From assembly GCA_036567965.1 (NCBI GenBank), contig DATCTN010000010.1, positions 22,510-86,509 on the forward strand: a DNA stretch of 64,000 nucleotides, written 5' to 3'. Shown one piece after another: positions 1-54,281 of this stretch (its first letter is position 1; the number at the start of each line of letters is the position of its first letter). The notes under the pieces are model-generated. The model saw only the letters and a program-made list of their open reading frames with translations. It made no database searches and was not told the origin of the DNA. The translations under genes and the position numbers were made by a program. Source of the DNA: Candidatus Kryptoniota bacterium. GTDB lineage: Bacteria; Bacteroidota; Ignavibacteria; Kryptoniales; JAKASW01.

Positions 1-2043
1 AAGAATAGCCTCTACTTAGTAGCGGCGGGCACACTTGCGCTTGTGCTCCTGGTCTACGATTGGATCAGGGTCACGATCAATCTCGATGCGCCCGTACTCA
101 ACACCCTCAGGAATTTATTTTCGGTTGTCATCTTTGTATTCGTGTATGCCGCTTTAAGTTCAATCAAGAGCCGGAAGCAGCTCGGTCCGCTGGAGATTTT
201 GACGAGGCTCGTCGGATACGGATTCATCACGGCCGCGGTAATCTCGGCGTGGGGGATATTCCTGGAGGAGAGGGGGACCGAGGCCGGAGTATTCGCGCCG
301 CAGAATTTCATCCAGCTCCTCGCGACCACTGTGTTTGCGCTCGGACTGGCCGCACTTATTTATCAGCTTCTCTACTTCGTGAGAACTCTGATCTACGTCA
401 AACCGGAAAAGAAGGTCAGGAGAAGATTCGAAATCTTTATGGGGCTCGCGATCGCGGTGGGAGTAATCAATATTTTCGGCTCGTCGGCATTTGTCAGGGT
501 GCTGTCGACTGCCGCATTCGTCCTCGCGGTCACGCTGGCGGTCCTTCACATAGTCAGCGTGAATTGGATCGTTTTTCTGTCGAGGAAAGAAAAGTACAAG
601 TCGCTCGGTCTGACATTCTTCCTGATGCTTCTATTCGGGTATTCCTACGCTTCCGTGGGTCCTGCCGATCTTGCAGGGGGAGTAATGCGGTTTTACAGTG
701 TGCCGCTCGAAGAATTCGCCAAAGTTATCTTCCTGTTCCTTACGATCTATTTCTCTCTCGCTTTCATAGTCACAGTTTTTCACATTCCTACAAGCGGAGT
801 CTTTGAGAAAAAGAAGCGTGAACTCGACTCTTACCAAAATCTCAGCAAGGTCATAACGAACGTGATGGACACGACGGAAGTGCTGAACAACACTGCAGCT
901 GTCGTGGGCACCGTTACACAGGCAAATAAAGTGTGGATCGAGCTCCGAAACGGAGGTCATTCCGATTCAGAGGGAAATTTCGTCGTAAGTGCGACTCATC
1001 GTACGAGTCAGTATGAGCTGTCCGCATTTAATTTCGGAAAAATCAGGGAGCAGGTGCAGGAAAAGAAGAAGGTGGTTGTCCAGGACTCGGCCGAATTCCA
1101 CAAATACGACCTGATCAATTTCCCTGCGAAGTCTCTTATTGCTGTGTCGCTTACCGCTCATGATGAGTTCATAGGCATACTTTACGCGGCTCACGACATG
1201 CCACTTGCTTTTGACCAGGATGAGATATCCACTGTCAGCGCCTTTGCGGATACAGCTGCGGTAGCTATTCAGAACTCTCTCCTATTTACCAAGTCGATAG
1301 AAAATGAAAGGCTCCAGCATGAGCTCCGCATCGCTCATGAAATGCAGATGAAACTTCTGCCTCTGTCGTTTCCTTCGTCCGAAAAATTTGACACCGATTT
1401 TCTGGCCTTTCCCGCTTTTGAAGTAGGTGGGGACTACATCGATTATTCGGTGCTTGACGACAGAAAATATGCGTTTGTCGTAGGAGACGTATCAGGAAAG
1501 GGAACCTCAGCCGCATTTTATATGGCATTCATGAAGGGTGTGTTCCAATCTCTCTCCGCGACGGCGAAATCACCGTCTGAATTCATGATGGCTGCCAACG
1601 AAGCGGTTGTGAATACTCTCCAGAAGAATTTCTTTATTACGTTAATTTACGCGATGCTCGACACGAAGAGCGGCGAGATTAATTTGCTTCGTGCCGGACA
1701 TACACCTGCAATCCTGATCAGAGACGGAAGCAGCAGACTTATCAAACCGTCCGGCGTCGGACTGGGGCTCGAGCAGTCAGTGGACTTCGGAAAGCACCTT
1801 GAGGAAGCGAAGATCTCGTTGAGATCCGGAGACACTCTTGTCCTTTATACGGATGGCGCGACCGACCAGCGAGATCCGAGCGGTGAAGAATTCGGCGAGC
1901 AGCGATTCTGCGAGCTCTTGACCAGGTTGAGCTGCGGCACTCCCACGGAGATTAAAGGAGGCATCATCCGGGCTCTTGCGGAACATTCGCAGGGAACGGA
2001 TGCCGTTGACGATACAACCGTTCTCGTTTTGAAATGGAAGTGA
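1..2043 (+). CDS. Membrane-anchored GAF + PP2C (SpoIIE/RsbU-type) serine phosphatase; probably 5'-truncated by the window edge
   Basis: ORF 43..2043, and the frame stays open back to nt 1 (KNSLYLVAAGTLALV...). The N-terminal ~250 aa are hydrophobic helices, the centre is GAF-like, and the C-terminus has PP2C motifs (GGDYIDY, VGDVSGKG, YTDGATD, DDTTVLVLK). Confidence 0.85.
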   Translation, partial: KNSLYLVAAGTLALVLLVYDWIRVTINLDAPVLNTLRNLFSVVIFVFVYAALSSIKSRKQLGPLEILTRLVGYGFITAAVISAWGIFLEERGTEAGVFAPQNFIQLLATTVFALGLAALIYQLLYFVRTLIYVKPEKKVRRRFEIFMGLAIAVGVINIFGSSAFVRVLSTAAFVLAVTLAVLHIVSVNWIVFLSRKEKYKSLGLTFFLMLLFGYSYASVGPADLAGGVMRFYSVPLEEFAKVIFLFLTIYFSLAFIVTVFHIPTSGVFEKKKRELDSYQNLSKVITNVMDTTEVLNNTAAVVGTVTQANKVWIELRNGGHSDSEGNFVVSATHRTSQYELSAFNFGKIREQVQEKKKVVVQDSAEFHKYDLINFPAKSLIAVSLTAHDEFIGILYAAHDMPLAFDQDEISTVSAFADTAAVAIQNSLLFTKSIENERLQHELRIAHEMQMKLLPLSFPSSEKFDTDFLAFPAFEVGGDYIDYSVLDDRKYAFVVGDVSGKGTSAAFYMAFMKGVFQSLSATAKSPSEFMMAANEAVVNTLQKNFFITLIYAMLDTKSGEINLLRAGHTPAILIRDGSSRLIKPSGVGLGLEQSVDFGKHLEEAKISLRSGDTLVLYTDGATDQRDPSGEEFGEQRFCELLTRLSCGTPTEIKGGIIRALAEHSQGTDAVDDTTVLVLKWK

Positions 2044-2086
2044 GGAATGAAGTGCTGAAAATTTTTTATGAAAGCCGGAGGAAGGT

Positions 2087-2437
2087 ATGAATGAGTTTAA
2101 AGTGCTGACTCGTGATTCGGGCAATGCTGTCGTTATGGAGCTTCACGGCTTCCTCGACGCGCATACGGCTCCGGAACTCGAAAAGACTTTTACAGAACTC
2201 ATAGGTAAGGGCAAATACAACATCGTGGTGAATTTCAACGAGCTCAGCTACATCTCAAGTGCGGGCCTCGGGGTATTCATGGCTTACATCGATGAAGTGC
2301 GAAACAACCACGGAGACATCAAGCTGACCAACATGCAGCAAAAGGTCTTCAATGTGTTCGATCTTCTCGGGTTTCCTTTCCTTTATGAGATTTACAGGGA
2401 CCAGACCGAAGCATTAAAGAAGTTCGGCGACCACTGA
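2087..2437 (+). CDS. STAS-domain anti-sigma-factor antagonist (RsbV/SpoIIAA-like)
   Basis: 116 aa. LHGFLDAHTAPELE...LSYISSAGLGVF contains the conserved phosphorylatable Ser context (SYISSAGLG). GGAGG SD upstream. Confidence 0.9.
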   Translation: MNEFKVLTRDSGNAVVMELHGFLDAHTAPELEKTFTELIGKGKYNIVVNFNELSYISSAGLGVFMAYIDEVRNNHGDIKLTNMQQKVFNVFDLLGFPFLYEIYRDQTEALKKFGDH

Positions 2438-2466
2438 CTCGTGTATCACCTTCAAGAGAACCTGAT

Positions 2467-2910
2467 TTGAAAAGAGCCGACAAAATAGACGATTCGAAAG
2501 TCTTCAAGAGTACGACGAACGCGCTGTCCGGCGTCAGAGCGTTTGTGAACGGGCACGCTTTCAATTTCGGATTCGGCGACAAGGAAATTTCTGAGATTAC
2601 GCTGGCTGTCGACGAGGCTTGCACGAATGTTATCAAGCACGCGTACAAGGGAAATCCGGAAGCACAGTTCGAGGTCAGGATTCTGGCCAGCGGGATCGAA
2701 TTTGAAATAGTGGTGCGCGACTGGGGAGCAAGTTTCAAACCCGAAGAAGTTCCGGTTCCGAATATCAAGGAGAAAGTCAAAAGGCATAAAGCGGGCGGGC
2801 TGGGCATATTCCTAATGCGGAAACTGATGGACACAGTCGAGTACCAGGAGAAGGGGAGTGTAAATGAAGTCAGGCTTGTCCGCTACCTCAAAAATGGGCC
2901 GAAGGCATAG
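2467..2910 (+). CDS. Anti-sigma regulatory factor / switch Ser-protein kinase (RsbW/SpoIIAB-like, HATPase_c)
   Basis: 147 aa, TTG start. N-box-like EACTNVIKHAY and G-box-like GGLGIFLMRKLMD. Lies directly after the STAS gene. Confidence 0.85.
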   Translation: MKRADKIDDSKVFKSTTNALSGVRAFVNGHAFNFGFGDKEISEITLAVDEACTNVIKHAYKGNPEAQFEVRILASGIEFEIVVRDWGASFKPEEVPVPNIKEKVKRHKAGGLGIFLMRKLMDTVEYQEKGSVNEVRLVRYLKNGPKA

Positions 2911-4615
2911 CGCTGGCGACGACCAGATCGTCGAGTTAACATCCATTATTGAGACCGCGAAGATTCTCAACTCTTCGTTGGATTATAAATTCATCCTTAA
3001 TCATATCCTTCTCGCATCCATGGGCAAGCTGGCCGTCTCCAAGACTGCTGCGGTCATTCGGCTTTCTCCCAATCTTGGAAAGAGCGAAGAGGGTTACCTG
3101 AAGATCTGCAAAGGAATACCAGTCACCGATGAGATGGCGGCCGGGCTCCTCTCGCTCGACCTTGAAGGATCCTCCGACGTCAGCGACATCAACGAAGAAC
3201 TTTCGCGCCAAGTGGCCGCCGCAGGTGCGAGGAAAATTTTCGCTCTGAGGAGCTCGCACCGGTTATTCGGCTACATGCTCATTGGAAAGAAACTGGTAAG
3301 TGAAGAATTTGCGCCGAGCGAAATCGAATTTGTGTCGAGTCTCTGCAACATCGCCGCCGCGGCCATTGAAAATGCGAACGTGTTCCAGCAATACAAGGAT
3401 TCCAACTTCGAGCTCCAGCGACGAGTGCAGGAACTGCAGACACTTTTCGAACTGAGCAAAGAGTTCAACCTCCTCATAGAAGAATCGAGGGCTATAAGGA
3501 CTCTCGAGTTCGCTGTGATGGGGCAGACCGGATCCAGAAACTACGCGATCTGTCTTTCAAATGACGCGGGTTCCCGCTTGGTAGTCAACAAAGGACTTCC
3601 TGGATTACCTGTGGACGAAATGAAAGCGGTATGTTCAGTTGAGCAGCCGACCAGGCTCTCGGAAATCGCGGAGACCATTCCCCTCGCAAAGGAATTCATC
3701 GTGAAGGGGGCCGAGGTGGTAATACCTTTCCAGCTCCAGGGGAATAACTCCGGAATGTTAATCCTTGGCGAGCGGCATAATCGATCGGCTTATTCGGATT
3801 CGGAAATAAGTTTCCTTTCTTCACTCTGCAATCTTGCGGCTATGGCAATCGACAATGCGCGCCTGTTTGAGGAATCCATGGCGAAGCAGCGGCTCGAGGA
3901 AGAACTGAATATAGCACACACTATCCAGGAGAAACTTCTTCCGAGAGAAATGCCGGCATTTGCCGGCTGCGAAATCGGCACGTTCCATATTCCTTCAAAA
4001 CAGGTCGGGGGCGATTACTTCGATGTGATAAAATCCGGAGAGGATTCGATCTGCGTCGCGATTGCGGACGTGTCGGGAAAAGGCTTTCCAGCAGCACTCC
4101 TTATGGCAAATCTCCAATCGGCCTTCAGAGCGCTGATTGCCGCCAGGCTTTCAATCGGTGAAATAGTGGTTCGACTGAACAATATTGTCTACGCCAACAC
4201 AGACTTCGACAGGTTCATCACTTTCTTTGGAGCTGTCTATGATTCCACTAAGAAAGTCATCACATATGTCAATGCGGGACACAACTACCCGTTTCTGATG
4301 AAGCGTAACGGGGACGTTGTCAGACTCGACAAGGGTGGATTAATGCTCGGAGTAATGCAGAACGTGAAATACGAAACGGGCCGCCAGATCGTTGATGCGG
4401 AAGACGTCCTTTACATGTTCACCGACGGGATAAACGAGGCGCTGAATTCTGAGGACGAACAGTTCTCTGAAGAAAGGTTAGAGGATGTTCTGACGTCCGT
4501 TCGCTCTTCTTCTGCTGAGCAAATACTGGAAAAGGTGAAGGAAGAAGTCGAAGCCTTTGTCGGTAACGCTCCCCAGAGCGATGACATCACTCAGCTTTGT
4601 GTGAAATTTAAATGA
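2864..4615 (+). CDS. Cytoplasmic tandem-GAF + PP2C (SpoIIE-type) phosphatase
   Basis: 583 aa. Two GAF-like halves each end in SSLCN(I/L)AA(A/M)AI(E/D)NA. PP2C motifs present: VGGDYFDV, IADVSGKG, FTDGINEA, DDITQLCVKF. Start is uncertain (2864 or ATG 2894), and either overlaps the kinase gene end. Confidence 0.85.
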   Translation: MKSGLSATSKMGRRHSAGDDQIVELTSIIETAKILNSSLDYKFILNHILLASMGKLAVSKTAAVIRLSPNLGKSEEGYLKICKGIPVTDEMAAGLLSLDLEGSSDVSDINEELSRQVAAAGARKIFALRSSHRLFGYMLIGKKLVSEEFAPSEIEFVSSLCNIAAAAIENANVFQQYKDSNFELQRRVQELQTLFELSKEFNLLIEESRAIRTLEFAVMGQTGSRNYAICLSNDAGSRLVVNKGLPGLPVDEMKAVCSVEQPTRLSEIAETIPLAKEFIVKGAEVVIPFQLQGNNSGMLILGERHNRSAYSDSEISFLSSLCNLAAMAIDNARLFEESMAKQRLEEELNIAHTIQEKLLPREMPAFAGCEIGTFHIPSKQVGGDYFDVIKSGEDSICVAIADVSGKGFPAALLMANLQSAFRALIAARLSIGEIVVRLNNIVYANTDFDRFITFFGAVYDSTKKVITYVNAGHNYPFLMKRNGDVVRLDKGGLMLGVMQNVKYETGRQIVDAEDVLYMFTDGINEALNSEDEQFSEERLEDVLTSVRSSSAEQILEKVKEEVEAFVGNAPQSDDITQLCVKFK

Positions 4616-5349
4616 TGCTCTGCGCAAAATTGAATGGGAAGAATCGGAGATGCTCGACGCTTCCTGAACCCGGATTTTATTTAGAGAGGCGTAAACATTA
4701 AATTGTAACGCAATAATTTCTATTCTTGTCTCAGGTATTGCGAAGCACGTAAGGGGAAAATTGATCGGAAAGATCTCGAATCCGCTCCAGTAAGCCCACT
4801 TACACATTTGGTAAAAGTATTTCGAAGAAGCGTCAAGCTTCTTGTATTCTAAAGGGGATAAAGTATTCTGCTGACTGATCGAGAAATCTTCACGAGCGAA
4901 TGCAGCTCACTGTTGGACTCGGCGAGTTCACCACACAATCTCTACGGAAGTCGGCTGCTGCGAGCCTGACGATGACTCATCGATATATGGAAAGTCCTCT
5001 TTGAGCGAATTAGCAGCTGCCCCGCCGCTGATATTCGAGAGAGAAAACGATTATGCATCCTATGTCTCAGGCAATATGACTTCGAAGTTGAGATTTTTTA
5101 ATTCAAACTTAATTTTTGCAATAACCTTGATCCGCATATTTGAGACAAACAGAGATGACTTAGCTTCTCGTCTTTCTATTGATGCAATTTCTTTTCCAAT
5201 GTCCCCGCGATCTCCACTTGGTCCGGAGCGAGGCGTTTCGGGCCATCTGACAAATTTCCCGCGGGGAAAACTGATGACCCCGGCGCGCTTGATGTGCTCG
5301 AGTGGTCGGGGATCAGAAGAATCACACTTGCCACCAATAAACTCCGATT

Positions 5350-7049: not shown

Positions 7050-7121
<72 letters not shown>

Positions 7122-32235: not shown

Positions 32236-32501
32236 TGGTTCAACAGGAAGTGGTCGTGAAAAATCGACTCGGGCTCCATACGCGCCCAGCGGCGACGCTC
32301 GTCAAAATGGCCGCGAAGTTTAAGTCGGAGTTCTTCCTCGAACGGGAGGGATATCGTGTGAATGGGAAGAGTATTATCGGCGTGATGACGCTGGCTGCGG
32401 AGCAGGGAGCCAGGATACTTCTCATTTTTGACGGTGAAGACGAAAGAGAGGCGCTCGCAACACTCGTGGAATTCTTCGACAAAGGCTTCGATGAGCCCTG
32501 A
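32232..32501 (+). CDS. ptsH: HPr phosphocarrier protein
   Basis: 89 aa. GLHTRPA holds the His15 site and NGKSIIGVM the Ser46 context. Confidence 0.9.
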   Translation: MMVQQEVVVKNRLGLHTRPAATLVKMAAKFKSEFFLEREGYRVNGKSIIGVMTLAAEQGARILLIFDGEDEREALATLVEFFDKGFDEP

Positions 32502-42439: not shown

Positions 42440-44227
42440 TCAACTTTTCGGCATATGAGAATCAGTCTGGGGAATAAATGAATTGAATTTGATTGACACG
42501 ACAGTCCCTTTTCCGACTTCACTCTCGATTTGGATGCTTCCCTTGTGTTCTTCGATTATGCGCCTCGTAACGGCGAGCCCGAGTCCTGTTCCCTTCCCCG
42601 GTTCCTTCGTGGTGAAAAATGGCGTGAACAGCTTTCTGAGGTTTTCGGGAAGGATTCCGTATCCGGTATCCTTAATTGTCACGATGACTCTCGTCTCGCC
42701 GTCAGATTCTTTTTCCTCGAGGGTTGCTACTTCCAGTTTTCCACCTTTGGCCATGGCATGGAGCGCATTCATAATTGTGTTCAGGAAAACCTGGTAGAGC
42801 TGTGCGGGATCGCCGTAAATCTTCAGTGATCGTGCGTCAAGCCGGGTCGAGATCTCCATGCCGCTCTTCTTGAATTGCGGTCGAACGAAATCTAGGACGT
42901 CATTCAAGATGGCATTCACATCTGCGGCCTGGAGAGAAAGGAGTTTCGGCTTGGCGTAATCAAGAAGCTGGCGCATCAGCTTCGTAATACGCCTGGTCTG
43001 CGCGATGATCGTGGAAAGTTCCTGGTAGCCTTTATCTCCCGACTTCATGTCGAGAAGCATGAATTCCGCGTTTCCGGAGATAATGTTGAGGGGAGTTCCG
43101 ATCTCATGTGCCATTCCTGCTGCAAGCTGGCCGATTGTCGAAAGCTTCTCGGTCTGGATAATCTGCTGCTCCAGATTCTTCCTTTCGCTTAAGTCGGATT
43201 CGATTCCCATGTAGCCGATCTTCTCGCCATCGTGGAATATGGGTGTAATACTTAACCAGATAGGTATTTCGACTCCGTCTTTTCGGTGGTTTATGATTTC
43301 ACCCTTCCAGTTGCTGAACTTTTCCAGCGAATTCCAGAGTTCCTTATAAAAATCGTGAGAAGAGTGCTTCGACTGAATCAAAGCTGTAGTTTTACCGAGC
43401 GTCTCTTCCCGGGAGTACCCGTAGATTTTAGTGAACGCGTCGTTAACTTCAATTATTGTCCCATCGACGCGGGTTATGATTATGGCGTCGGTAGCCTGCT
43501 CGAAAGCGCTCCGGAATAATTGAAGTCTCTCCCTGAGCAGTTTCTCGTCGGTGATATCGCGGTTTAACCCGATAACGCCGCCGAATGTATTTCCCGGCCC
43601 GATAAGCGAGTACCACGATTTCATTACATGAATGATATCACCGTTCTTCTTTACGATCCGGTGCTCAGAGCCCTCGACGCTCCTGTGATTCACAAATATC
43701 TGATCGAATTCCCTTTTCAATTTCGCCTTGTCGTCGGGATGGACGATGTCGAGAGGATGTATCCTTCCTGTAAGAAAGTCCTCCTTCGTGTAGCCGGTCA
43801 TCTTTTCGGCATTGTCGTTGACATAGTATACGCGTGTTTCCGAATCGAACTGGAATACCAGGTCGGTGCTGGCGTATACCACGTGCGGAAGGATAGAAAC
43901 CTGGCTGCCAGCTTGATTGTCCTTTTCATTGAACACAATCACCGACAAGCCGTCAAAATTCTCGAGATGTTTTCCTGTCAGGATAGTGCCTGTTGCCCTC
44001 AGCGTAAATGGGATTTCATCGTTCCCATCGGCGATCGGGAGAGTTGGGAAAGTTCTGAAAATTTCGGAAAGTGGGGCAGGAGTCTTTTTGACACCTGTCA
44101 GTTGTTCGAACTTCGGAGTGAAAGCGACGAGATTTCCCTTCGAGTCGATCACCGCGCCGCATAAACCGGCATACGACATTAACGAGATAATTCCACGAGT
44201 CCGGAGAATGTCATTCCCTGACGACAT
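42440..44227 (-). CDS. Multi-PAS sensor histidine kinase
   Basis: 595 aa. At least two PAS modules. H-box is AHEIGTPLN. HATPase boxes are NALHAM, KDTGYGI and GTGLGLAV. Confidence 0.9.
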   Translation of the reverse strand: MSSGNDILRTRGIISLMSYAGLCGAVIDSKGNLVAFTPKFEQLTGVKKTPAPLSEIFRTFPTLPIADGNDEIPFTLRATGTILTGKHLENFDGLSVIVFNEKDNQAGSQVSILPHVVYASTDLVFQFDSETRVYYVNDNAEKMTGYTKEDFLTGRIHPLDIVHPDDKAKLKREFDQIFVNHRSVEGSEHRIVKKNGDIIHVMKSWYSLIGPGNTFGGVIGLNRDITDEKLLRERLQLFRSAFEQATDAIIITRVDGTIIEVNDAFTKIYGYSREETLGKTTALIQSKHSSHDFYKELWNSLEKFSNWKGEIINHRKDGVEIPIWLSITPIFHDGEKIGYMGIESDLSERKNLEQQIIQTEKLSTIGQLAAGMAHEIGTPLNIISGNAEFMLLDMKSGDKGYQELSTIIAQTRRITKLMRQLLDYAKPKLLSLQAADVNAILNDVLDFVRPQFKKSGMEISTRLDARSLKIYGDPAQLYQVFLNTIMNALHAMAKGGKLEVATLEEKESDGETRVIVTIKDTGYGILPENLRKLFTPFFTTKEPGKGTGLGLAVTRRIIEEHKGSIQIESEVGKGTVVSIKFNSFIPQTDSHMPKS

Positions 44228-47930: not shown

Positions 47931-48003
47931 TCCTCGGTAGCTCAATCGGCAGAGCAATCGGCTGTTAACCGATGGGTTGCAGGTTCGAGTCCTGCCCGAG
48001 GAG
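47931..48003 (+). tRNA. tRNA-Asn (anticodon GUU)
   Basis: Hand-folded: acceptor TCCTCGG/CCGAGGA, D arm GCTC-aatcggca-GAGC, anticodon arm ATCGG-CTGTTAA-CCGAT, T arm GCAGG-TTCGAGT-CCTGC, 73 nt. Confidence 0.92.
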
Positions 48004-48037
48004 CAACGATAAGTTGAGGGGCCTCCCAGATAAATCG

Positions 48038-49753: not shown

Positions 49754-49815
49754 ATTAGTTCCCCCTGCATCTCGTTTATGTTTGCTTGCCGCTGCTCAGG
49801 TTGACATTTCAATGT

Positions 49816-49853
49816 AATTGCAGTTGCGCAATCATTGCAATGGCCATTGCAAT
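49816..49853. promoter_or_regulatory. Cluster of TTGCAAT-type palindromes (candidate enhancer/UAS for the adjacent sigma-54 activator)
   Basis: ATTGCAATGGCCATTGCAAT is a perfect 20-bp palindrome (49834-49853). It is preceded by TTGCGCAA (49824-49831) and aATTGCAg. The cluster lies in the divergent intergenic region, 60-100 bp upstream of the -24/-12-like sequences. Confidence 0.55.
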
Positions 49854-49909
49854 ACCGCAAAGTATGTAAGCTTGTATCGCTTATTCCAAACGAAAAGCAA
49901 GGAAAATCG

Positions 49910-49936
49910 CGGCATGAGGATTGGCTTTATATCGCC
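49910..49936 (+). promoter_or_regulatory. Weak or ambiguous sigma-54 promoter-like sequences upstream of the NifX-like gene
   Basis: cGGCATGaggaTTGGc has correct GG-to-G spacing but GG instead of GC at -12. The overlapping TTGGCtttatatCGCc has its GC one nt too close. Neither is a clean match. Confidence 0.25.
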
Positions 49937-49959
49937 GTAAATAACAAAAGGAAGTGAAA

Positions 49960-50334
49960 ATGAATCGAAGATTAGCGGTGGCAATTGAAGAATCGAGCTC
50001 CGAAGAGCGGGTAGCTCAGCACTTCGGACATTGCGCCAAGTTCAATATCTGTGAGCTGGACTCAGAGAACAAAATTGTGAAGCAGGAATCCTATTTCAAT
50101 CCTTTGAACGGCGAGCATGGCGGTGCGTGCCAGCTCCCTGCTTATGTCAAGCAATTCAACGTCGACACGATCATCGCAGGGGGAATGGGGCGCAAAGCTG
50201 TCATGGGCTTTCAGCAAGCAGGCATCGAAGTCATTACGGCGCCCGGACTTCTCTTCAGTGAGGCGTTGAAACTATTCACCGAAGGCAAGTTGAGCGGCTA
50301 CGAGGAATGCGCAGGCCATGAGCATCATTCCTAA
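49960..50334 (+). CDS. NifB/NifX-family (dinitrogenase FeMo-cofactor-binding-like) small protein
   Basis: MNRRLAVAIEE...VAQHFGHCAKFNICELD...VDTIIAGGMGRKA...AGIEV is the typical PF02579-like pattern (from memory). ATG 49960 is preferred over GTG 49954. Confidence 0.8.
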   Translation: MNRRLAVAIEESSSEERVAQHFGHCAKFNICELDSENKIVKQESYFNPLNGEHGGACQLPAYVKQFNVDTIIAGGMGRKAVMGFQQAGIEVITAPGLLFSEALKLFTEGKLSGYEECAGHEHHS

Positions 50335-50356
50335 AAGTCAAGTAGAGTGACAGACC

Positions 50357-50947
50357 ATGATAATGCCAATATATCTCTATGGGACGAGGGTCTGGGATGG
50401 TACAGTTCGTAAGATCGATACGTTCGATGAAAAACTCGTTGGTATAATTCGGAATATGTTCGAGACATTACGAAGCGCGGACGGCGTCGGCCTGTCCGCA
50501 ACGCAGGTCGGGTTTCGGATATCTCTCTTCGTGATGGACATCTCGGAGATGGAAGGATATGCAGACGAACAACCGCTTGTCGTCATCAATCCAGAGATTC
50601 TTTCGTCGAGCGAAGAAACCAAGACGCTGGAGGAAGGATGTCTGAGTGTTCCGGGAATTTGTCTGGAGGTCACTCGCCCCGAATCCATCATTGTTCGATT
50701 TACTGATGGCAATTTTCAAACTGTCGAATGTGAATACAGTGTGGCCCTGGCCCGCGTGTTCCAGCATGAGTTTGATCACCTGCATCAGAAGTTCATCACA
50801 GATCGAGTATCAGCACTCAAGCGTCATATTCTCAAACCGAACCTGTCCAAAATCAAGCGAGGAGAGATTATTACGCGCTATCCAGTTATATCTCCGCCCG
50901 ATGAAAAAGTCATGAGACGTCCCGAAGTTTTCGATTATGCGAAATGA
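50357..50947 (+). CDS. def: Peptide deformylase (with a C-terminal extension)
   Basis: 196 aa. The three Def motifs are GVGLSATQVG, EGCLSVPG and QHEFDHL. Confidence 0.9.
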   Translation: MIMPIYLYGTRVWDGTVRKIDTFDEKLVGIIRNMFETLRSADGVGLSATQVGFRISLFVMDISEMEGYADEQPLVVINPEILSSSEETKTLEEGCLSVPGICLEVTRPESIIVRFTDGNFQTVECEYSVALARVFQHEFDHLHQKFITDRVSALKRHILKPNLSKIKRGEIITRYPVISPPDEKVMRRPEVFDYAK

Positions 50948-51030
50948 AAGGAATTGGCTACGCGTTAAAAATTATCACTGCACGATTGTACAAAGCTGTT
51001 GTTAACAAACTCAAACAAAAGGAGATATAA

Positions 51031-51285
51031 ATGTTTGGATATTATAACGACTTCGGTTACGGAAGAGGAATGGGTCATGGCTTTGGACACAGACACTGCC
51101 ATGGCGACGTCTTTGGTCCTAACTACGGAATGGGAAGAGGCTTTGGTCGATTTGGAGGAGCTTTCTTTGGCGAAAGCGATGTCGATGTGCTGAAGCGCTA
51201 TCGAGACCGTCTGGAACTTCATAAGAAATACATCGAAGCTGAACTCAAATACGTGGACGAGAGAATAACGTCGTTCGAAAAGTGA
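51031..51285 (+). CDS. DUF5320-like Gly/aromatic-rich protein with a C-terminal coiled coil
   Basis: 84 aa. GYGRGMGHGFGHRHCHG...GMGRGFGRFGG is followed by LKRYRDRLELHKKYIEAELKYVDERI. Strong SD (AAAGGAG). Family name is from memory. Confidence 0.65.
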   Translation: MFGYYNDFGYGRGMGHGFGHRHCHGDVFGPNYGMGRGFGRFGGAFFGESDVDVLKRYRDRLELHKKYIEAELKYVDERITSFEK

Positions 51286-51347
51286 TAAACATCGTGGCCG
51301 TGGTCTATGCACCACGACCACATCAAACTTGCTGAGGAGCTACAAAT

Positions 51348-51536
51348 ATGAGCAAAGGTCATGGCGGTGGCATGGGCGCAGGCGGATATTGTGTCTGCCT
51401 GAAGTGCGGGTACAAAAAACCTCACGAGCGAGGAGCGCCGTGTATGGAAGAGAGATGCCCTAACTGCGGGAAAGCCCTCATGCGTGAGGGATCTGAACAC
51501 TACAATCTGGCATTAGCAAAGAAAGAGAAGAAGTAG
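51348..51536 (+). CDS. Small 4-Cys zinc-ribbon-like protein
   Basis: 62 aa. G-rich N-terminus, then C.C.KCG...(14)...CPNCG. SD is GAGGAG. It is recalled as co-occurring with DUF5320/NifX-like genes. Confidence 0.6.
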
Positions 51537-51540
51537 GCTC

Positions 51541-52086
51541 ATGTTCGTGCTATCGAGAATATTTTTTACAAAAGGGGTCGGAAAACACAAGGATTATCTA
51601 AGTTCATTTGAGCTTGCCCTTAGAGATGCGGGTATCGAGAAGTGCAACCTTATCTCAGTCAGCAGCATTTTCCCTCCGTGCTGTAAAAAAATCAGTTTGG
51701 CTGAAGGGCTGAAGGAAATACAAAGCGGGCAGATCACCTTCACCGTGATGGCGCGGAGCGCTACCAACGAGCCGAACCGCCTTGTCGCCGCATCCATAGG
51801 AGCTGCGATTCCAGCCGAATCGAATCAATACGGTTACCTTTCTGAACACCATGCTTTCGGCGTCAACGAAAAATCGGCAGGCGATTACGCAGAGGATCTC
51901 GCCGCGCAAATGCTCGCGACCACTCTCGGAGTGGAATTTGATCCGAACACAGACTGGAACGAGCGTGAGCAGGTGTTCAGGATGTCTGAGAAAATAGTCC
52001 GCACGTTCAACCTAACTCAGACAGCTGAGGGAGACAAAAACGGGTTATGGACGACAGTTGTGGCAGCTGCCATTCTATTGCCATGA
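51541..52086 (+). CDS. pdaD: Pyruvoyl-dependent arginine decarboxylase
   Basis: 181 aa. [39 protein letters not shown] matches the PdaD N-terminus, including the self-cleaving SS site. Confidence 0.85.
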
Positions 52087-52099
52087 ACCAAGGAGCACC

Positions 52100-52486
52100 A
52101 TGCCGCTGTTTAGAACCGAAATAGAGTTTGAGGTCAGCACTTACGACATCGACGCAGCACACCACGTAAACAATATAGTTTATGTCAGATGGCTCGAAGA
52201 CCTGCGATGCAAGTTATTGGCTTCCCGCTATCCAGTCGAAGAGCTATTGAAGAGAAATCTGTACCCCGTTGTTGCGCTGACCAAGATTCGTTATCGAAAC
52301 CAATTGAGGTTGGCCGACAAGCTCGAAGGGATTATTTGGGTTGAATCGATTGAGCACGGTCTGATGCGACTGAAAGCGATATTTCAAAAGGCGGATTTAG
52401 TTATTGTCACAGCCGAACAGGAATGTGTATTGATGGATTTGCAAACCGGTAAGATGGATAAGAAGGCGATGGAAATTTACTTGTGA
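52100..52486 (+). CDS. Hotdog-fold acyl-CoA thioesterase (4HBT/YbgC-like)
   Basis: The start is ATG 52100 with AAGGAG upstream. V.TYDIDAAHHVNNIVYVRWLED has the catalytic Asp context. Confidence 0.78.
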   Translation: MPLFRTEIEFEVSTYDIDAAHHVNNIVYVRWLEDLRCKLLASRYPVEELLKRNLYPVVALTKIRYRNQLRLADKLEGIIWVESIEHGLMRLKAIFQKADLVIVTAEQECVLMDLQTGKMDKKAMEIYL

Positions 52487-52495
52487 GGGGAGGGG

Positions 52496-53212
52496 ATGAA
52501 TTCTATGGAAGAAAATAAGAGTCGTTGGTACGACGGTCTTTTTTACGATTTGTTTATCGCCCCGCACCAGGACAAAGTCTTTGCACAGGTGAAAGAAATC
52601 CTGTCCAAGGACTCGACACTTCTCGATGTTGGCTGCGGTACTGGCAGGCTTGCCTCTCAAATCCTGGACAAATGTGAGAGAATTGAAATCATAGACCCTT
52701 CGGAGAAGAATATCAGTATCGCGAAGCGCAAATTTGCAGAAGTTCCTCCCGACAAACTCTTTATCCGGCATACAGATGGATTGACGTTCCTTCGGAATGG
52801 CGGAGTTCATTATGATTTTGTGGTTATGTCTTACGTGCTCCACGAAATTGCGGAAGAGGAAAGAGATGTGCTCTTATGGGGACTCTCGAGAGTTGCGGAC
52901 AAGATTATTATCGTAGATTACCTTGTCCCCGAACCGAGAAATTATTGTGCCATCCTCAATCGCCTTGTCGAATGGGCTGCGGGTTCAATCCACTATAGGA
53001 ATTTAAAATCATTCATGAAGGCTGGGGGGATCTTGGGTCTTCTGGAGAAAGTCCCATTGAACGTTCTAAGCGAGGTGAAAAACCGACCCTGCTCAAGCCA
53101 CATTGCTGTACTTGAGGGAAAAACCGGAAGAAACGGCAAATCTCAACTTCATGGTCCAGTACCCGACAGAACTGAAATAAGAGTGAAGATATACGAACCG
53201 AATCGATCGTGA
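52496..53212 (+). CDS. Class I SAM-dependent methyltransferase
   Basis: 238 aa. Motif I is LLDVGCGTGRL, followed by the downstream segment FVVMSYVLHEI. Confidence 0.75.
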   Translation: MNSMEENKSRWYDGLFYDLFIAPHQDKVFAQVKEILSKDSTLLDVGCGTGRLASQILDKCERIEIIDPSEKNISIAKRKFAEVPPDKLFIRHTDGLTFLRNGGVHYDFVVMSYVLHEIAEEERDVLLWGLSRVADKIIIVDYLVPEPRNYCAILNRLVEWAAGSIHYRNLKSFMKAGGILGLLEKVPLNVLSEVKNRPCSSHIAVLEGKTGRNGKSQLHGPVPDRTEIRVKIYEPNRS

Positions 53213-53231
53213 AAAAGATCCCAAATTATCT

Positions 53232-53247
53232 TGGCATGGTAATAGCG
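53232..53247 (+). promoter_or_regulatory. Candidate sigma-54 (-24/-12) promoter upstream of the DsrE-like gene
   Basis: TGGCATGgtaaTAGCG compared with the consensus TGGCACG-N4-TTGCW. GG (53233-34) and GC (53245-46) have the canonical 12-nt register. It lies about 70 bp upstream of ATG 53318. Confidence 0.55.
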
Positions 53248-53317
53248 CATCCGGTCGGGTTCATCACTAATGTAGTATTTAGCCACTTAACACAATTGGA
53301 CAACCCAAGGAGACTGG

Positions 53318-53670
53318 ATGAACATTCTTATACCGATTAATGATGCTCCTGTCGAACGGAAAAAGCTTACAACGCCTTCAGGCTGGCGATGGCGATTCAA
53401 AAAGATCATTCAACTGTACAGGTCAACGTATTTTTAATGGCGGATGCAGTCAGTTGTGGAATTTCGAATCAAAACACAGCGCAGGGTTATTACAACATCG
53501 AAAGGATGATCAAGGCTGTTGTTCAAAAGGGCGGGAAGATCAAAGCCTGCGGCACATGCGCTGATGCCAGAGGGGTCAAGAGCCTCCCACTCATCGAGGG
53601 AATCGAGGCAAGCAACATGGCAGAACTTGCCATGTGGACGGTCGAGGCAGACACGATCTTAACTTTTTGA
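53318..53670 (+). pseudogene. DsrE-family sulfur-relay protein interrupted by an apparent 1-nt deletion (frameshift)
   Basis: Frame 1 from ATG 53318 reads MNILIPINDAP, then nonsense until a stop at about 53437. The +2 frame reads ...TEKAYNAFRLAMAIQKDHSTVQVNVFLMADAV...YYNIERMIKAVVQKGGKIKACGTCADARGV... to 53670. Adding one nt near 53351-53356 (gtcgaacg to gtcGgaacg) restores a 117-aa DsrE-like protein. The SD is AAGGAG. Confidence 0.7.
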
Positions 53671-53806
53671 CACCTAGAGCACGCGATCTACGATTGGCTC
53701 AGTTACCTATTGCTCGCATTTTGATATTGCAATGCAGCCGCTGAGTAATTCATCACATTGAAGCCACTTAGGGCATAAATTCCTTAAGCTTCCGCAATAT
53801 TTGTCC

Positions 53807-53822
53807 AGGTACAATAGTTGCC
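53807..53822 (+). promoter_or_regulatory. Candidate sigma-54 (-24/-12) promoter upstream of the marR-tusA-hdr-like operon
   Basis: AGGTACAatagTTGCC has GG 53808-09 and GC 53820-21 in the canonical register, about 28 bp before ATG 53850. An ATTGCAAT palindrome identical to the 49.8-kb half-site sits at 53726-53733, about 80 bp upstream. Confidence 0.5.
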
Positions 53823-53849: not shown

Positions 53850-54281
53850 ATGACGAAAGACTATGCATCCGGGACAAGTATGCTCCGGTTAGCTCTTGCA
53901 TGCCGAAGGTTTCAAAAGAGACTTGCCAGCGGGACCGGCTTGTCCACAAATGAAATCATCTGCTTGTTAATCCTGCACATGCAGGAGTTGAAATCCGTAA
54001 GTGAATTAAGCTCCATTGTGGATCTCTCCTGCACCTCCACCTCCAAGATTCTTTCCAAGCTCCAGAAAAAGAGGTGCATTGAAATTGCCTTGCATTCTTC
54101 CGACAGGCGCAAGGAGCAAGTCGTACTCACCGACTTCGGACGCGGAATGTCAGAGAGGTTGTTGTCCAGTTCGAAAGACCTTGCAATGGATGTGCTTGCC
54201 AGTCTGCCTGAGAACATGAAGATGGAATTCGCGAATTGGATACAATGGCATTCGGTCGACAACAGCAGCGAATCAACTTAA
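53850..54281 (+). CDS. MarR-family winged-helix transcriptional regulator
   Basis: 143 aa. LSTNEIICLLILH...SVSELSSIVDLSCTSTSKILSKLQKKRCIE...DRRKEQVVLTDFG is the MarR wHTH pattern. Confidence 0.75.
   Translation: MTKDYASGTSMLRLALACRRFQKRLASGTGLSTNEIICLLILHMQELKSVSELSSIVDLSCTSTSKILSKLQKKRCIEIALHSSDRRKEQVVLTDFGRGMSERLLSSSKDLAMDVLASLPENMKMEFANWIQWHSVDNSSEST

Follow-up and report, generated by a model that had tools for sequence, protein, structure and literature searches.

The region at 49817-49924 of the 64,000-nucleotide stretch analyzed here, which derives from a Candidatus Kryptoniota bacterium and is called the window below, appears to be the control region of a divergent gene pair, composed of a gene for a sigma-54 activator that resembles OrpR of Desulfovibrio and an operon headed by a NifX/orange protein (ORP)-like gene. 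We assign a probability of roughly 0.75 to this reading, which is based on an array of five TGCAAT-type boxes and a promoter element of the -24/-12 type, both recurring beside orthologous activator genes (Table 1). The comparison covered 16 regions, that is, the window and 15 orthologous loci from Kryptonia-like bacteria, Ignavibacteria, and Melioribacteraceae, with protein identities of 58-89% and GC contents of 31-54%. Seven of the loci (L081-L087) comprise close relatives, 76-89% identical, together with Ignavibacterium album JCM 16511 (L087), and the other eight (L001-L007 and L009) belong to Ignavibacteria and Melioribacteraceae and show 58-68% identity. A genome scan with the activator yielded 80 loci, nine of which were true orthologues; the remaining 71 genes, which code for generic bacterial enhancer-binding proteins (bEBPs), were used together with 744 kb of surrounding DNA as negative controls.

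In all 16 regions, four to six TGCAAT-type boxes precede the activator gene, and their positions are nearly constant. Counted from the first G of the -24 GG, the GCAA cores in the window stand at -91, -83, -74, -62, and -54, exactly as they do in L081, L082, and L086, while the cores extend from -93 to -56 in L083 and from -92 to -55 in L084, and stand at -95, -87, -76, -64, and -56, with an additional one at -115, in I. album. Box positions are identical or differ by no more than 2 bp in the Kryptonia-like clade and agree within approximately 4 bp in Ignavibacteria, and the promoter-proximal box is 54-57 bp from the GG in 14 of the 16 regions. Relative to the predicted transcription start, the array spans about -117 to -75, with its center at about -92. 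The consensus drawn from 72 boxes, the window being excluded, is (T)GCAA(T), with T in 82% at -1, A in 94% at +3, and T in 68% at +4. The density of TGCAA reaches 43.9 per kb in the array zone versus 1.77 per kb per strand across the loci, which corresponds to a 25-fold enrichment, and the only place in the 64 kb where at least three GCAAT words occur on one strand within 70 bp is 49817-49861, compared with 0.2 such places expected in shuffled sequences. The window contains no second array, and the array occurs essentially once per locus among the 15 orthologous loci scanned. Moreover, the module is kept even though the first gene downstream of it varies among NifX-like, radical SAM, DUF5320, and Mrp-like genes. 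These findings support the view that the array is a real enhancer-type element, conserved in phylogeny and placed upstream of a promoter of the -24/-12 type.

The array might instead be bound by a transcription factor other than the product of the adjacent gene, for example by a repressor of the activator gene, because it overlaps the probable promoter and leader region of that gene and because the sixth box found in Ignavibacteria is situated about 25 nt from the activator start codon. We regard this as quite improbable, given that the array accompanies the activator gene in every one of the 16 loci, whichever gene is its neighbor, and that its distance is fixed to the -24/-12 element and not to the activator start codon, which is 118-165 bp away from the GG. 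In addition, the array is absent around the 71 other bEBP genes, save for a few unrelated chance clusters. One such cluster is found in a metagenome-assembled genome of Syntrophomonas (L062), where a bEBP gene is followed by a TTGCAA-rich stretch (1714-1789) and a canonical TGGTATGGTAATTGCA (2029-2044), both preceding duplicated small Zn-ribbon genes; it was rejected as a counterpart of the array because the activator is unrelated and has a different helix-turn-helix (HTH) domain. Binding by the adjacent bEBP thus remains the preferred reading, and the location of the array, 64-108 bp ahead of the activator start codon, points to probable autoregulation of the activator gene. A scan of the minus strand from 49754 to 49900 detected no sigma-70-like promoter for this gene.

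The initial annotation had started from the palindromes in this region, and it placed ATTGCAATGGCCATTGCAAT, ATTGCAAT, AGGTACAatagTTGCC, and TGGCATGgtaaTAGCG correctly. A repeat finder bears out that ATTGCAATGGCCATTGCAAT is a perfect palindrome with arms of 10 + 10. It is, however, perfect in the window genome only, and the relatives keep boxes 3 and 4 at a distance of 12 bp while the symmetry is lost, so that, judged from the alignments, the conserved unit is the TGCAAT box, mostly in one orientation, rather than the 20-bp palindrome. The bias in orientation is not exclusive (GCAAT:ATTGC = 50:29), and direct and inverted recognition are not separable by sequence alone because the TGCA core is self-complementary. 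Two composite units of 15 nt, ATTGCAGTTGCGCAA and ATTGCAATACCGCAA, were also detected by the repeat finder, at a distance of 29 bp from each other. A search of the window for TGCAAT-N6-TGCAAT with up to two mismatches gave 15 matches against 5.9 expected, but these were not accepted as evidence for a wider regulon because the matches outside the array lie within open reading frames (ORFs) or coincide with sigma-54-like words. A site for integration host factor (IHF) between the array and the promoter was also considered and dropped, since the candidate ATCGCTTATT (49875-49884), which is common to L081 and in part to L083, fits WATCARNNNNTTR poorly on inspection. No RNA family of Rfam was matched in the intergenic regions scanned.

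The layout resembles the NtrC-type enhancers, such as that of glnAp2, and the upstream activating sequences of bEBPs in general, in that several sites precede a -24/-12 promoter by about 80-120 bp, have a TGCA core, and overlap the regulator's own control region. The NtrC site is TGCACC-N5-GGTGCA. The present boxes differ from it because they mostly share one orientation and follow one another at 8, 9, 12, and 8 bp instead of forming two clear dyads, and because the sensor is a PAS domain and not a phosphorylated receiver.

The putative promoter that faces the operon reads CGGCAT-GAGGA-TTGG, with the GG at 49911-49912, a G in register at 49923, and a G instead of C at 49924. The predicted start is near 49936, which is 24 nt 5' of the ATG at 49960. 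The initial annotation had dismissed the -24/-12-like elements nearest the activator as imperfect and had left the promoter unclear, but the element at 49910-49924 is the one that is conserved: the pattern GGnAY-N5-T[TAG]G exists on the strand of the divergent gene in all 16 orthologous regions, while only about 0.08 matches per region are expected by our estimate from base frequencies. The family retains the GG, A, Y, T, and G, and rarely has the -12 C. As in the canonical promoter (TGGCAC-N5-TTGCW), the GG and T-N-G are in register, T or C precedes the GG, and A-Y follows it. The counterpart in I. album, ATGGTACATAAATAGT, ends with TAGT and lies upstream of a radical SAM operon. The best-looking matches to the -24/-12 consensus were not the conserved promoter, and consensus matching alone is misleading here. 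A scan of the window for TGGCAC-N5-TTGC with up to two mismatches returned 47 matches against 44 expected, which is the level of chance.

The activator is a complete bEBP as judged from its domains and motifs. Pfam assigns to it Sigma54_activat (PF00158, 230.7 bits), AAA_lid_14, HTH_8 (PF02954, residues 529-569), and two PAS domains, and the protein has GAFTGA at 344, Walker A GESGTGK at 297, Walker B DEIGD at 368, and ESELFGH. Its PAS2 contains C184-x8-C193-x3-C197 and E186, and the triad C-x8-C-x3-C with E or D at +2 is invariant among the 16 orthologues, in which the HTH helix NPSTLWRKMKK is also essentially invariant. The NifX-like protein encoded by the first gene of the operon matches the C-terminal domain of the NCBIfam model MrpORP, and this match pointed to the orp system of Desulfovibrio vulgaris. 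OrpR (DVU2106) of D. vulgaris Hildenborough is a PAS-AAA+-HTH bEBP whose PAS domain, with a conserved Asp/Glu at 54, has a redox-sensitive [4Fe-4S] cluster dependent on C52, C61, and C65, and whose oxidation stops activation while DNA binding is retained (PMC8359166). Judged from these published residues, the triad spacing and the acidic residue at +2 of the present protein are the same (PMC8359166). Both are one-component PAS-AAA+-HTH activators of sigma-54 promoters, and both are encoded by genes that adjoin, and diverge from, a sigma-54-type promoter of Nitro_FeMo-Co (ORP/NifX-like) genes; in Ignavibacteria the operon also contains Mrp-like, DUF5320, and radical SAM genes. OrpR sites exist at -88 (orp2) and at -131, and IHF binds in the interval that separates site and promoter (PMC3897727), and the enhancer described here is likewise centered about 90 bp upstream of the start. 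Based on this analogy, the activator is probably OrpR-like and redox-sensing. The differences are that the loop is GAFTGA here but GAFTDA in OrpR (PMC4641369), that a single divergent operon is present here in place of two flanking operons, that this operon adds peptide deformylase, pyruvoyl arginine decarboxylase, thioesterase, and methyltransferase genes, and that the host belongs to the FCB group (Kryptonia/Ignavibacteria) and not to the Desulfovibrionales. When the activator was searched against NCBIfam, no model for OrpR matched.

A locus from a deltaproteobacterial metagenome-assembled genome (L028) encodes a single-PAS bEBP that is 42% identical to the activator over PAS2-AAA+-HTH and has the same Cys triad. 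There, a canonical TGGCAT-N5-TTGCT (TGGCATTGTATTTGCT, 1981-1996) is located ahead of a Nitro_FeMo-Co gene, and a palindrome with 8-bp arms, ACCGTTTC-N7-GAAACGGT (1868-1895), lies about 95 bp upstream of it. The locus probably represents another OrpR-like module with a motif of its own.

The sequence features observed, with their conservation and geometry, and the motifs of the protein lead us to infer how binding, sigma-54 dependence, signal, and autoregulation might be combined. The activator would bind the five-box array via its C-terminal HTH domain, assemble as an AAA+ ring, and contact the sigma-54 holoenzyme in the closed complex at CGGCAT-N5-TTGG; ATP hydrolysis by the activator would then open the promoter, and transcription would begin near the predicted start. 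From the same array, the activator probably also controls its own gene. If the PAS2 triad forms a site like the [4Fe-4S] site of Desulfovibrio OrpR, the likely signal is redox potential, and the operon would be on under reducing conditions and off under oxidizing ones.

Several observations weigh against this model. The canonical -12 GC is present in only two of the 16 promoters, the others having TTGG, TTGA, TTGT, TGGT, TAGT, or TGGA, so that 14 lack the C. A leave-one-out matrix scan of the window places the promoter third with a score of 13.8, a score that 57% of shuffled windows reach somewhere. The pattern used for anchoring was derived from the same 16 sequences, and its invariant columns are therefore partly circular. 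No sigma-54 domains, and hence no rpoN, were seen among the ORFs scanned in the 64-kb window. The NifX-like protein gave no match at E <= 0.01 with a solved orange protein, and its likeness to ORP is at the level of the domain family only. In addition, OrpR uses one 17-bp palindrome, GGGCGYRTTTTGCGCCC, per promoter rather than five to six TGCAAT boxes, and the present activator has an extra N-terminal PAS domain. The palindrome of OrpR is absent from the control region, its sole match in the window with three mismatches, at 32271, is attributable to chance, and L028 has none. The missing C, the insignificant matrix score, and the absence of rpoN from the ORFs scanned would equally suit the idea that the GG...T-N-G element is not a sigma-54 promoter at all and that the NifX-like operon is read by a housekeeping sigma factor, but we judge that idea to be very improbable. 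The pattern far exceeds its chance expectation, the distance from the element to the array is fixed, and the flanks that the pattern does not impose (T/C before GG, G/A after Y) resemble TGGCACG; because the matrix score is insignificant, it is this presence in 16 of 16 regions, this constant distance, and these flanks, i.e., conservation and geometry rather than sequence score, on which the promoter stands. Furthermore, no promoter-like match for sigma-70 was found on the plus strand of 49754-49960, and the neighboring gene encodes an obligate partner of sigma-54 with the GAFTGA loop intact. The canonical TGGCAT-N5-TTGCA that exists elsewhere in an Ignavibacteriaceae locus (L041) suggests that the deviation at the -12 C may belong to this promoter family, not to the phylum.

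How far the control by the activator extends is a separate question. The targets of OrpR in chromatin immunoprecipitation-sequencing are its two adjacent orp operons only (PMC8359166), from which the regulon here probably consists of the divergent operon and the activator's own gene. By this analogy, an ordinary local switch is the most likely arrangement, and in its apparently local regulon the system is again similar to OrpR. The initial annotation had instead proposed a regulon of three sigma-54 promoters, upstream of the NifX-like operon, a DsrE-like gene, and a MarR-like gene, linked by copies of ATTGCAAT. In both downstream elements the first G of GG precedes the G of GC by 12 nt, which is the spacing of sigma-54 promoters, and the DsrE-upstream element is the top match of the matrix built from the orthologous promoters, with a -12 TAGC form that also occurs in L003 and L004; upstream of marR, GG-N10-G[C/T] is kept in seven relatives, and the TGCAAT at 53728 is retained in the four closest genomes. 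The linking word, however, is at background frequency. Four copies of ATTGCAAT exist in the window versus 1.46 expected, a number reached by 8 of 100 shuffles, and two of these are the 20-bp palindrome itself, while another (56220) is within an HdrA-like ORF. The copy at 53726, separated from the GG by 79 bp, is out of register with the conserved array, and its TGCAAT is replaced by TCTCAAC, TTTCAAC, or CTCAAT in L089, L093, and L090, the relatives with TCTCAAC or TTTCAAC having MarR proteins of 72-76% identity. It is most likely a product of chance or a feature of the closest relatives only. Neither downstream site has the boxes at -91 to -54, and the search for a second array described above found none. 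The enhancer arrangement that the initial annotation had postulated stands beside the activator but not at the two downstream sites. Together with the nonconservation of the DsrE-upstream element, the frameshift in the gene that follows it, and the local targets of OrpR (PMC8359166), these points make the three-promoter regulon improbable, and the DsrE- and MarR-upstream elements are probably outside the control of this activator.

The DsrE-upstream TGGCATGgtaaTAGCG has no box array upstream of it. Its match to the matrix, TTGGCATGGTAATAGCGCAT, is the best in the leave-one-out scan of the window, with a score of 16.0, which is reached anywhere in 10.5% of dinucleotide-shuffled windows; being intergenic and correctly oriented, the match is mildly significant. 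The element is, however, not conserved in the alignments. In L095 the start of DsrE overlaps the end of the methyltransferase gene, and the counterpart, TCGGTGGTAATAGCA, belongs to coding sequence and does not keep the register. L096-L101 have DsrE inside another operon, and L081 lacks the gene, while the DsrE of L086 is of a different, secreted type and was not accepted as an orthologue. The gene in the window is frameshifted: the 120 homologues listed, all with full query coverage, have 117-126 aa, nearly all 117, and the annotation of the source genome includes only a C-terminal part of 93 aa. The frameshift could reflect either a real pseudogene or an error of long-read assembly. Directly past the DsrE stop codon is a strong sigma-70-like promoter match (53667-53694; TTGACA, 16 nt, TACGAT; 10/12), of which L095 keeps TTGACA only.

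For the MarR-upstream region, seven relatives with MarR-like proteins of 66-92% identity were aligned; a metagenome scan with the MarR-like protein matched the L081 contig only. The element is contained in AGGTACAatagTTGCC (53807-53822), within the control region 53794-53822, where the tandem 11-mers GCAATATTTGT and ACAATAGTTGC, 17 bp apart, overlap both GGTAC-N5-TTGC (GG at 53808-53809, GC at 53820-53821) and TACAAT (53810-53815). No box array exists at -91 to -54 of its GG, and it ranks just 67th with the family promoter matrix. The GG-N10-G[C/T] is nevertheless invariant in the seven relatives, even in L090, where the bases between differ (GGAATGTTATTTGC), and retention of this 10-nt separation argues for a real -24/-12 element. 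The odds of a sigma-54 promoter at this site are about even, while control by the PAS activator is unlikely.

Proteins of the MarR family typically occupy pairs of palindromic sites that cover their own promoters, and 53794-53822 might accordingly be a MarR autoregulatory operator, in which tandem pseudo-palindromic 11-mers (RCAATAGTTGY) cover a promoter of the sigma-70 type and not of the sigma-54 type. This would be in keeping with the MarR-family regulator encoded directly downstream, the low sigma-54 matrix rank, the quality of TACAAT as a -10 hexamer, and the presence of the 11-mers at 17 bp in six of seven genomes (the window, L081, L082, L095, L089, and L093). In the seventh, L090, neither the second 11-mer nor TACAAT is preserved, yet the GG and GC remain exactly 10 nt apart; within the spacer that separates the 11-mers, only the GG is invariant, and no good -35 hexamer exists at 17 bp. 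The repeats are similar to known autoregulated MarR operators in their tandem, pseudo-palindromic form directly upstream of a marR-like gene, and dissimilar in their coincidence with a conserved GG-N10-GC register. Based on sequence comparison, we consider the operator a real possibility with somewhat less than an even chance, and the two interpretations of the site are compatible with each other. The imperfect palindrome TGAGTAATTCATCA is located about 53-66 bp upstream of the GG of this element. The MarR-like homologues all have 143 aa while the source annotation gives a product of 100 aa (P0129), which probably starts too late.

With the divergent control region, an activator that is conserved at 58-89% identity over 16 loci obtains a concrete operator and promoter model. 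A literature search turned up no study of sigma-54 regulation in Ignavibacteria. The model suggests that the Fe-S PAS switch of the OrpR type, which has so far been characterized in Desulfovibrio only, also operates outside Deltaproteobacteria and relies there on another DNA motif. The fixed geometry of five to six boxes and the family-wide loss of the -12 C are mildly novel, the latter adding a small data point on the drift of sigma-54 promoters from the consensus. A bolder idea, which we think rather unlikely, is that Kryptonia and Ignavibacteria have a distinct design that combines five to six fixed boxes of mostly the same orientation with a class of sigma-54 promoters lacking the -12 C and that extends OrpR-type control beyond Deltaproteobacteria. 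If that were true, there would be about one box for each DNA-binding domain of an activator hexamer, so that DNA could template the assembly of the ring, the missing cytosine could alter the locking of the closed complex, and redox control through an Fe-S PAS domain would reach genes for peptide deformylase and arginine decarboxylase. The same module exists in I. album JCM 16511, a named and sequenced strain, in which these predictions are testable if it is culturable and manipulable.

The gene order of the operon is kept in L081 and L082, except that the DUF5320-like gene is missing from both, and related gene sets are found in L083-L087, where Nitro_FeMo-Co genes are present; an Mrp-like gene comes first in L003. 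No convincing plus-strand terminator was found within 49960-53212. A GC-rich hairpin with a 12-bp stem exists at 51293-51322, directly past the DUF5320-like gene, and has no T-run on the plus strand. The divergent operon of L083, L085, and L086 also holds genes for a peroxiredoxin (AhpC/Prx), MamS/MamX-like, ARMT1-like, and CGGC-domain proteins, and a multihaem cytochrome, which fits a theme of redox or oxidative stress.

Table 1. Features of the divergent control region, its flanking genes, and the downstream elements (coordinates in the window; a dot denotes no strand).
Feature	Coordinates	Strand	Basis or remark
Sigma-54 activator (bEBP) gene, 571 aa	48038-49753	-	PAS1-PAS2-AAA+-HTH_8; Pfam domains
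Candidate upstream activating array, five boxes	49819-49861	+	Conservation and geometry
Box 1, TGCAGT	49819-49824		
Box 2, CGCAAT	49827-49832		
Box 3, TGCAAT	49836-49841		
Box 4, TGCAAT	49848-49853		
Box 5, CGCAAA	49856-49861		
Perfect 20-bp palindrome ATTGCAATGGCCATTGCAAT	49834-49853	.	Boxes 3 and 4 plus flanks; repeat finder
Putative sigma-54-type promoter	49910-49924	+	Orthologue conservation
Predicted target operon	49960-53212	+	Pfam and NCBIfam
NifX/ORP-like (Nitro_FeMo-Co, PF02579)	49960-50334	+	
Peptide deformylase	50357-50947	+	
DUF5320-like	51031-51285	+	Weak match
Zn-ribbon-like, 62 aa	51348-51536	+	
Pyruvoyl arginine decarboxylase	51541-52086	+	
Thioesterase	52100-52486	+	
Methyltransferase	52496-53212	+	
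TGGCATGgtaaTAGCG, candidate sigma-54-like element upstream of DsrE-like gene	53232-53247	+	
DsrE-like gene, frameshifted near 53350	53318-53670	+	Homologue lengths
Isolated ATTGCAAT	53726-53733	.	Background frequency
Imperfect palindrome TGAGTAATTCATCA	53742-53755	.	Conserved in window, L081, L082, L095, L089, L093
MarR-like control region	53794-53822	+	Tandem 11-mers GCAATATTTGT (53794-53804) and ACAATAGTTGC (53811-53821)
MarR-family regulator gene	53850-54281	+	Pfam; first of a TusA, MvhD/FlpD, HdrA-like cluster

On the other side of the control region, a tRNA-Asn (GTT) gene is located 34 nt past the activator stop codon on the opposite strand (47931-48004), the other of the two tRNA genes in the window being at 7050-7121. 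A PAS-PAS histidine kinase gene without an adjoining response regulator (42440-44227) lies 3.8 kb from the activator gene, and a HemN-like radical SAM gene, prfA, and a DUF423 gene are placed between the two. Farther away, about 730 bp at 4616-5349 have no convincing ORF or Rfam match; the minus strand of this stretch has a sigma-54-like word, TTGGAAAAGAAATTGCA (5199-5183). Two consecutive genes for GAF-SpoIIE (PP2C-type) phosphatases fill the left end (43-4615) of the window.

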